Shown here piece after piece: positions 30,314 to 31,686 of a DNA stretch of 31,686 bases (position 1 is the stretch's first letter; the number at the start of each line of letters is the position of its first letter). The DNA is from Candidatus Falkowbacteria bacterium CG10_big_fil_rev_8_21_14_0_10_43_10 (GTDB lineage: Bacteria > Patescibacteriota > Patescibacteriia > Patescibacteriales > XYC2-FULL-47-12), in NCBI GenBank assembly GCA_002773655.1, contig PFAR01000024.1:25986-57671 (forward strand). The letters run 5' to 3'. The notes beneath the pieces were generated by a model. That model ran no database searches. It was not told the origin of the DNA and worked only from the letters and a program-made list of their open reading frames with translations. The position numbers were made by a program, and so were the translations under genes.

Positions 30314-31390
30314 TTAAATCTTCGCGAGCTTTAACATCAGCTCGCTCGGCTTCAGAAACCGGATGAACACGTATCCGGCTCTCTGGTCCTCGGGGGAAAC
30401 TTCATCATACTTTAATCCCCCGATTCCGATTTGCGAGGCTTTTTGCCTCGCAGAGTCGCCGAGTTTCAAAACCCTGCCAATCGCCCAGGAGCGTTCATTG
30501 CTTAGTTCCTGGTTTCGGGAAGAAATCCCTGTATCGGCATCGGCGCCTGCCCAAATGGCGACGACTTCAACTTCGCCAGCCGCTCGCGCTTCGTTAATCA
30601 GCGCGATTTTTTTGGCCATTCCGATTTTTACAACCGACTGGCCAATGGCGAAATTTCCGACGTGGACTGTGTCCATGTTGTCGGCGCCGAAGCGGGCGAG
30701 CACCCGGGTTTCAACCAACATACGTGATAGCTTGTTGGTTGTTTCCCGGACTGCCGTTGTTTCACCGCGGATTCCGGCCAAAGTTTTTTCGAAGTCGTCC
30801 TGACGTTTTTTCACGTCAGCGACTGAATCCGAAAGAACCTTTTGGCCGTCGGTGAGATCGGTTACGCGGTCTTTCACATCCTCAACCGCGAGAAGTCGCT
30901 CGCCGACTTTGTCAATCCTGCCGTTCTGCGCCTCTATCGCCTCGGTCGCGGAGGCGATGTTGTCGGCGATTTTATCCAATTGTTTTTGAATCGCCGGCGG
31001 GATGGCGGTTTCCCGTTTTTGCAAAAAAATCCAACTGCCTATGAGAATCAGCGCACAAGCAGTTACAATTATTGCGTGATACCACCACGGGAAATGTTTT
31101 CGTGGAGTGGGGTTAGTTTCCTCTTCCTCTTCTTCGTCGTCGAGGTCGAGGTGGTCTAGTTCGTCTCCGGTTTCGGATTTTCCCTCATCGTCTAGGTCGA
31201 GGTTGGTTTCGGCGGATTCGTTTTCGCTGGGTTCGTCGCCGAGACCGTCGATATCCAGATCGTCGAGGTCGAGATCTTCGTCGACAGGTTCCGGTTCGGG
31301 GGTGGTATCGTCGACGACTTCCGGTTCGGATCGGTCAATATCCGGACCGTCGATATCCTGATCTTCTTGGTTGATCATCGTGTCTGCCAT
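30314..31390 (-). CDS. Bitopic membrane protein: acidic N-terminus, TM, coiled coil, divergent OmpA-like peptidoglycan-binding domain
   Basis: SD AAGGAG before ATG 31390; TM WWYHAIIVTACALILIGSWIFL; AGADADTGISSRNQELSNERS matches G..D..G....N..LS..R. Confidence 0.75.
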   Translation of the reverse strand: MADTMINQEDQDIDGPDIDRSEPEVVDDTTPEPEPVDEDLDLDDLDIDGLGDEPSENESAETNLDLDDEGKSETGDELDHLDLDDEEEEEETNPTPRKHFPWWYHAIIVTACALILIGSWIFLQKRETAIPPAIQKQLDKIADNIASATEAIEAQNGRIDKVGERLLAVEDVKDRVTDLTDGQKVLSDSVADVKKRQDDFEKTLAGIRGETTAVRETTNKLSRMLVETRVLARFGADNMDTVHVGNFAIGQSVVKIGMAKKIALINEARAAGEVEVVAIWAGADADTGISSRNQELSNERSWAIGRVLKLGDSARQKASQIGIGGLKYDEVSPEDQRAGYVFIRFLKPSELMLKLAKI

Positions 31391-31442
31391 AACAAATCTC
31401 CTTTTTTCCCGCATCTGTTTTCAGTGCGGGGAATTGGCCTTT

Positions 31443-31555
31443 AAAAAAAATTCTAAACCTTTACTTTAGAGTTCATCTTCTGCTATTGCAGGTAATCCTA
31501 CCACCTAGGCCAGCTCCAGGCTTTATCCCGGGCCCCGGCCGCGCTGATTCTAAAG
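31443..31555 (-). ncRNA. Candidate riboswitch-like structured leader with a competing terminator
   Basis: Closing helix CUUUAGA-AUCA / UGA-AC-UCUAAAG, GC-rich internal hairpins, terminator UCUAAA...UUUAGA-A-U8 sharing the 3' strand. Confidence 0.55.
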
Positions 31556-31686
31556 TTAGGTTAATCTTTTATATATATACACACAGAGCGTAAAAGGTTT
31601 GAACTTTTAGCTCTGAATTATTGTAAAGATCGCAGTCAACCATTTTTATGATTGATACATTAGTATAGCATACTTTTTATATTATT

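Follow-up and report, generated by a model that had tools for sequence, protein, structure and literature searches.

The RNA encoded on the minus strand near the end of the window (the whole 31,686-nt stretch of DNA that was analysed, itself the end of contig C54) is, as judged by comparing homologous leaders, a vertically inherited, clade-restricted structured domain in the 5' leader of the mRNA for an OmpA-like protein, with a fold that by the same comparison is under selection and cis-linked to one gene family. No described family includes the element, which represents a new leader-RNA motif of a known general kind, confined to a very narrow clade. The role that I predict for it, at a probability of about 0.45, is that of a cis-acting double-stranded RNA module serving in processing, stability or protein binding. 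The initial annotation had regarded it as a new ligand-sensing RNA with ON-switch architecture upstream of a cell-envelope gene; the conserved structured leader and the cell-envelope-type gene have held, the terminator switch has found no support.

Control of genes at the RNA level is almost unexplored in CPR/Patescibacteria, which are uncultured and in which most Rfam families are missing. The element, presently an orphan motif of four lineages, represents a clean case of a lineage-specific leader RNA under selection, far more conserved than the fast-evolving envelope protein, and its natural "deletion" and "apex-swap" variants define which part of it matters. Should ligand or protein binding prove true, it would offer a handle on the regulation of a cell-wall-anchoring protein in reduced cells.

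Homologues, synteny and taxonomic distribution

The leaders are of five types, and the fold is conserved in a small number of groundwater Falkowbacteria-like bacteria. The source genome carries a three-way junction of about 107 nt (type O); the lineage of G008, a Candidatus Falkowbacteria MAG of the same family, carries a three-way junction of 98 nt (type F); two Logan contigs carry a 75-nt rod without P3 (type H); genome G006 has the same basal helix topped by an unrelated interior with two hairpins (type G6); and genome G010, which belongs to the same genus as G008, has an element-free leader.

A BLAST search of 41 relatives returned low-complexity and promoter-box matches, one of which led to the homology in G008, on the opposite strand of that locus; a 19-nt match elsewhere in G008 (contig C13) lies in a DnaB-like coding region and was discarded. 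The G008 contig (start of C36) and locus L033 both end inside the element. Pattern scans yielded four F-type loci in full form plus two chance matches among metagenome contigs, G008 plus one chance Flavobacteriaceae match among genome contigs, and no element among viral contigs, and a pattern for the basal motif gave chance-level matches only in 401 genomes of the class. Covariance model R1, which does not reach the H or G6 forms, matched only the source genome and G008 among 151 genomes of the order, the other 149 being negative. Taking pattern and model searches together, the element was found in 2 of the 11 genomes of the family; in the source genome it is single copy, its arms and core occurring nowhere else.

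Between strains of the F lineage (loci L032, L035, L037, L046 and L052), upstream DNA and element are identical, and the strains differ by indels and substitutions in the spacer and in the acidic N-terminus of the OmpA-like protein. From these sequences the acidic tail looks hypervariable within populations, and such differences may explain the break of the G008 contig.

The genes downstream of the element at the F loci are homologues of P0001, the gene product in the source genome, and the synteny is conserved, with a divergent tsaB-like gene, the leader, the P0001 homologue and a giant convergent gene. Searched exhaustively by profile, 1.84 billion representative proteins yielded no more than six clusters of the P0001 family at E < 1e-10; a word-index protein search returned P0001 alone when queried with P0001, and F-type clusters only when queried with the alignment. 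Identity between the O and F proteins is about 23%. By protein, O falls loosely together with G6 and H, and F with G010; since the three-way junction lies on both sides of this deepest protein split, it is probably the ancestral form. At the G010 locus (L040, contig C3, about 950-1050 on the reverse complement), an N gap flanked by a duplication of about 55 nt lies upstream of the promoter of the P0001 homologue, and this duplication is probably an assembly artefact.

Architecture of the element

The element spans about 107 nt (31562-31456, minus strand), with the parts listed in Table 1. All strings quoted in the initial annotation are present on the minus strand, including CUUUAGA at 31555-31549, UCUAAAG at 31470-31464 and the AUCA/UGA segments, and the GC-rich island described there is borne out (G+C 0.51 at 31450-31549, vs 0.29 upstream and about 0.4 downstream).

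Table 1. Features of the leader and of the downstream gene in the source genome (window coordinates)
Feature	Position	Strand	Basis or remark
Extended -10 box TGcTATACT, likely promoter	31662-31670	minus	Read directly; -35 box lost to the contig end at 31686
Leader hairpin CAGAGC...GCUCUG, then A/U-rich tract (31583-31563)	31584-31615	minus	Sequence reading
P1 5' strand AACCUAACUUUAGA	31549-31562	minus	Pairs with 31470-31456, probability at least 0.9; covaries in F, H and G6
P1b 5' strand UCAG	31544-31547	minus	Pairs with CUGG in F and H
P2	CGC 31543-31541 with GUG 31504-31502, plus long bulged hairpin 31540-31508	minus	Loop 31526-31521
P3 GUAGG-AUUA-CCUGC	31488-31501 (31501-31497 with 31492-31488)	minus	Replaces GGUA/UACC
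J3/1 joining strand, lineage-specific insertion, including GCAG and UGA	31471-31487	minus	Not conserved
P1 3' strand UCUAAAGUAAAGGUU	31456-31470	minus	Folding and comparison
UUUAGA arm, then A and U8 (31450-31443)	31457-31452	minus	Arm overlaps the P1 extension
Hairpin CCCGCA...UGCGGG, just before A-run and SD	31408-31430	minus	Sequence reading, full-leader fold
SD AAGGAG; start codon ATG	31403-31398; 31390-31388	minus	
Downstream gene P0001, 358 aa	30314-31390	minus	Acidic N-terminus, one TM helix, coiled coil, divergent OmpA-like C-terminal domain

The closing helix that had been proposed is real and carries compensatory changes, but it was drawn short: an outward extension, AACCU/AGGUU, brings P1 to about 13 bp in all four element-bearing forms. 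The basal architecture consists of this helix, a small bulge and a further 3-4 bp, which in O and F are capped by the three-way junction. In the source genome the upper base pairs (P1b) join UCAG with CAGA, with one A-A mismatch, or alternatively UCA with UGA (31475-31473).

The long hairpin recognised earlier, now P2, likewise withstands comparison, with compensatory changes between O and F, and the sequence of its loop varies (AUAAAG in the source genome, GUUAG in F). Less fortunate were the two small hairpins drawn beside it, GGUA-GGAU-UACC (31502-31491) and CUGC-AAUA-GCAG (31491-31480), both of which use C31491; the former drops to 83% paired on the O/F alignment and the latter has no counterpart in F. 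The energy model nonetheless prefers, in the source genome, the competing CUGC/GCAG over P3 (probability 0.8 vs 0.13). J3/1 is 17 nt long in the source genome, and F has GGUAA plus CUGG. The G-U pairs in P1, P2 and P3 fit the strand of the gene only, and an antisense RNA was rejected on this ground. A 7-codon frame (AUG AAC UCU AAA GUA AAG GUU UAG) can be read at 31453-31476 on the minus strand; F, H and G6 do not share it, and a leader peptide was discarded as a candidate.

Conservation and covariation

The O and F elements are 74% identical, and 81% identical in the 68 nt at the 5' end; shuffles gave means of 55-57% and maxima of 61-65%. Outside the element the two lineages are no more alike than shuffles, and this holds for the 90 nt upstream, for the spacer and for the gene over its first 300 nt. 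On the O/F alignment, the initial structure has 94.6% of its cells paired and the revised one (P1, CGC/GUG, P2 and P3) 97.5%, with five pairs changed on both sides. In P2, three pairs changed on both sides and one on one side, with 94% of cells paired, and P3 (GUAGG/CCUGC) is 100% paired in both sequences, with a double change from A-U to G-C and a single one from U-G to U-A. Along the seven inner pairs of P1, compared across O, F, H and G6, one position reads A-U, G-U or G-C and another A-U or G-C. The UG bulge and the UCAG/CUGG helix above P1 are common to F and H.

As there are four independent basal helices, one per lineage, and only two independent three-way-junction sequences, the covariation statistics are weak. 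P1 is conserved in sequence beyond what pairing demands, and the internal-loop bases of P2 (GGGG, AGCU and CUA-GU) are identical in O and F. This exceeds the needs of a pure double-stranded RNA role, and it could therefore mean specific recognition by a ligand or a protein. O and F show invariant junction and loop bases among covarying stems, in a sample of two three-way-junction sequences. Across all homologues a conserved ligand pocket finds no support, for the apex is reduced in H and replaced in G6, and the element is missing in G010.

Folding energies and the proposed terminator

The 125-nt span originally delimited has a fold z of -1.32, with 16 of 200 shuffles equally good, and is thus not significant by energy alone. 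Bounded by the extended P1, the O element reaches -2.74, and the homologues give -3.64 (F), -5.62 (H) and -3.71 (G6).

The terminator alternative of the initial annotation does exist as sequence, with UCUAAA/GUAAAGG/UUUAGA at 31470-31452 followed by A and U8, and the mutual exclusivity of the two is real on paper; the extension of P1 also uses bases that the terminator needs. Its stem had been called AU-rich and weak, and rightly so: the UCUAAA/UUUAGA hairpin alone amounts to -3.2 kcal/mol for 6 bp, one of them G-C, which differs from the G+C-rich stem of at least 5 bp followed by a U-tract that marks an intrinsic terminator. In the 120-nt RNA its ensemble probability is 0.000, and the pairs of P1 stand at 0.9 or above without ligand; opening P1 to form the terminator gives a state of -28.8 kcal/mol vs -39.0 for the MFE. 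The terminator scan made no call at the UUUAGA/U8 hairpin, and in the F, H and G6 leaders P1 is followed by neither a comparable hairpin nor a U8 tract. By folding model and comparison alike, the terminator switch is neither energetically poised nor conserved, and the ON-switch is left without support: its terminator is far too weak for a 13-bp P1 and its platform is not shared.

Known RNA families

No match was obtained with Rfam 15 (4227 models) over the whole window at the gathering threshold, nor on the homologous loci; at E <= 10 over 31300-31686 there was noise only, and the minus strand over the element was empty. The check by cmscan thus places the RNA in no known family at any threshold tried. 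The models covered included ykkC/guanidine-I, SAM-I, c-di-GMP-I/II, ydaO and the ppGpp/PRPP subtypes, and the resemblances to ykkC, SAM-I and c-di-GMP-I that had been pointed out have no match behind them on this strand even at the loosest threshold. GGGAUAAAGCCUGGAG bears what I take to be a short local likeness to the 3' hairpin of ykkC; unlike guanidine-I, however, the element has no ykkC P1 and P2 domains, and its stem and loop are free to change (CAGAG-GUUAG-CUCUG in F), so that the ykkC-like loop is not conserved.

With purine-type riboswitches the element shares its place in a 5' leader, a three-way junction closed by P1, covarying stems and some invariant unpaired bases. Unlike them, it has no conserved loop-loop or junction signature across all its homologues, no conserved platform and no Rfam match, and its P1 greatly exceeds a typical switch helix in length and stability.

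Bacterial SRP (4.5S) RNA is found in every genome and is marked by the symmetric and asymmetric loops of helix 8 and a GNRA tetraloop. The element shares with it a hairpin-like form of about 100 nt with paired ends, but has neither helix-8 loops nor GNRA, lies in an mRNA leader without a terminator, and was not found in most genomes of the family. Searches with RF00169 and RF01854 at E <= 1 gave no match in the 11 genomes of the family, the source included, whereas in control genomes the same search matched 13 of 14 with RF00169 and 11 of 14 with RF01854; it may be that this family has an SRP RNA too diverged to be picked up by the Rfam models, or that it has none.

Some further candidates were rejected: hammerhead and twister cores were not found in the sequence, no RT gene lies nearby that would point to a retron ncRNA, and an inverton is contradicted by the lack of an inverted form in contigs of the DNA runs and by the G-U pairs, which argue for RNA-level selection.

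Proposed role and alternative explanations

Leaders that act through RNase III or mRNA stability include those of E. coli pnp and rnc, the stem-loops of the ompA 5' UTR and the Bacillus 5' stabilisers. The element resembles them in its long imperfect helix of at least 20 stacked bp upstream of an exposed SD, in the conservation of that helix with an apex free to vary, and in the RNase III gene encoded in the source genome (C3:2903-3289); it differs in having no sequence relation to them, a basal helix conserved in sequence, and a three-way junction kept in two lineages. A near-continuous double strand of about two turns is found in all four element-bearing forms (P1 of 13 bp and the 3-4 bp above it, on which P2 or the apical hairpins can stack coaxially). 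Since the basal helix is shared and the apex plastic, a helix-centred role fits better than a fixed ligand pocket.

Under the favoured reading, the element would be transcribed from the upstream promoter and the leader RNA would fold constitutively, with P1 formed without ligand. The rod-like double-stranded RNA would then act in cis on the P0001 mRNA, by admitting a double-strand nuclease, by hindering exonucleolytic decay or by binding a protein, and the processing or stability so set would determine the output of the gene. It is the shape of the modelled fold that suggests a part for RNase III or for stability; ligand-gated switching of a terminator would not belong to the mechanism.

A new riboswitch class, in which the O/F junction would bind a small molecule to control the gene, with H and G6 as degenerate or re-specified variants, is unlikely, and about as unlikely is its more specific version, namely that this junction is the aptamer of an undescribed class confined to a Falkowbacteria-like CPR family and tunes the OmpA-like wall tether, the signal sensed then being, for instance, an alarmone or an envelope precursor. 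What keeps the riboswitch reading alive is the identity of the P2 internal loops in O and F, that is, of loop and junction bases within covarying helices across two genera whose proteins have diverged so far; the position in a 5' leader and the lack of a match to any known family point the same way, and the source genome encodes RelA/SpoT, which makes an alarmone possible as ligand. Against it stand the unconserved expression platform, with a terminator of zero probability absent from F, H and G6; the high stability of P1 without ligand; the variation of J3/1 and of both terminal loops; the form H, without P3 and most of P2, and the unrelated interior of G6; and the element-free leader of G010, although this genome is congeneric with one that bears the element. 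Moreover, the gene product is a structural envelope protein, neither a transporter nor an enzyme, and c-di-GMP and c-di-AMP, which had been put forward as ligands, lose ground as GGDEF and DAC cyclase domains were not found in the 84%-complete assembly. Distinctly unlikely is a transcription attenuator, with the P1-closed element and the U-run behind it acting as an intrinsic terminator or pause that limits read-through, perhaps modulated by a protein: runs of U4 to U8 do occur 0-5 nt after P1 in O, G6, H and three of the four F variants, yet the base of P1 is A/U-rich, the U8 of the source genome is 5 nt away from P1, one F variant has no U-run, such runs are frequent by chance in A/T-rich spacers, and the terminator scan was negative.

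Two further explanations compete with the double-stranded RNA reading. The remnant of a small, MITE-like palindromic insert that entered a short ancestral leader and persisted, exapted but with no specific function, would account for the 8-nt direct repeat TTTAGAAT that flanks the interior (31554-31547 and 31457-31450), and for the resemblance of the leader, once one repeat and the interior are removed, to the element-free leader of G010. This is very unlikely, given that the element is single copy, that its motif turned up at no other site in the 151 order-level or 401 class-level genomes or in viral contigs, that it occupies the same site in four lineages, that the flanking repeat occurs only in the source genome and not in F, and that the interior helices covary and contain G-U pairs, arguing for selection on RNA. 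Least likely is that the element is a separate small RNA gene, driven by a promoter of its own and with ends that pair as P1, or that it is a housekeeping RNA, for instance SRP RNA, in diverged form, even if a TATA(A/T)A box does lie 4-7 nt before AACC, at a similar distance in all four types, and SRP RNA escapes the Rfam models in 11 of 11 genomes of the family. The box has no -35 partner, and AUAUA also stands directly before the SD in the element-free leader of G010, which makes it more likely leader sequence than a promoter; F, H and G6 have no terminator; the bulges of P2 are of 1-2 nt, not the loops of helix 8, and its apical loop (AUAAAG or GUUAG) is not GNRA; the element is missing in G010, and of the 10 other genomes of the family 8 gave no match to it; and ARAGORN found no tRNA or tmRNA.

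Promoter, leader and downstream gene

The source contig ends at 31686, that is, 124 nt upstream of the first base of the element (31562), in an assembly (G000) of 0.9 Mb. In the G6 and H loci, the ATGCTATACTAAT box with TTGACA 17 nt upstream scores 11/12 as a promoter (TTGACA-17-TATACT, of the extended -10 type), and from the end of the -10 box to the element there are 67 nt in G6 and 82 nt in H; the promoter of the F lineage reads TTGACT-17-TATTAT. The ATGCTATACTAAT box (31658-31670, minus strand, in the window) recurs in many genomes of the order, where by its sequence it looks like the strong-promoter consensus of the clade.

In each of the four leader types with an element, a GC hairpin and (U)AUAUA directly precede it, and the element-free leader of G010 has the same hairpin and AUAUA tract directly before the SD. 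This placement indicates that the element is internal to the leader, and makes the TATA-like box next to it more likely leader sequence than a second promoter. At two of the loci (L039:1017-1035 and L052:1334-1349) the GC hairpin received a terminator call on the strand opposite the gene, with a stem followed by GTTTTTG; it may be a bidirectional terminator, or an insulator of the divergent tsaB-like gene. Behind the element comes an A-rich spacer, and the F, H and G6 leaders have an exposed SD; the source genome has the hairpin at 31430-31408 and an A-run before its SD, G010 showing an analogous order of hairpin, A6 and SD. In the full-leader fold of the source genome, the U8 tract can pair with A6GG at the SD.

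The OmpA-like assignment of P0001 comes from a weak OmpA match in Pfam and from a profile of five homologues, which weakly matches OmpA/Pal-type chains (6u83, E 0.0026); a GxADxxG..N..L..R motif is visible in the alignment of the family.

In four groundwater DNA runs the sequence of the element is identical and free of variants, joints and inversions. In relatives the leader is flanked by the tsaB-like gene; in the source genome this gene lies on contig C15 (C15:3646-5141), about 1 kb from the contig end, with two ORFs in between, one of them small and lipoprotein-like. C15 and C54 end in similar but not equal sequences, and on this likeness the two contigs may adjoin.
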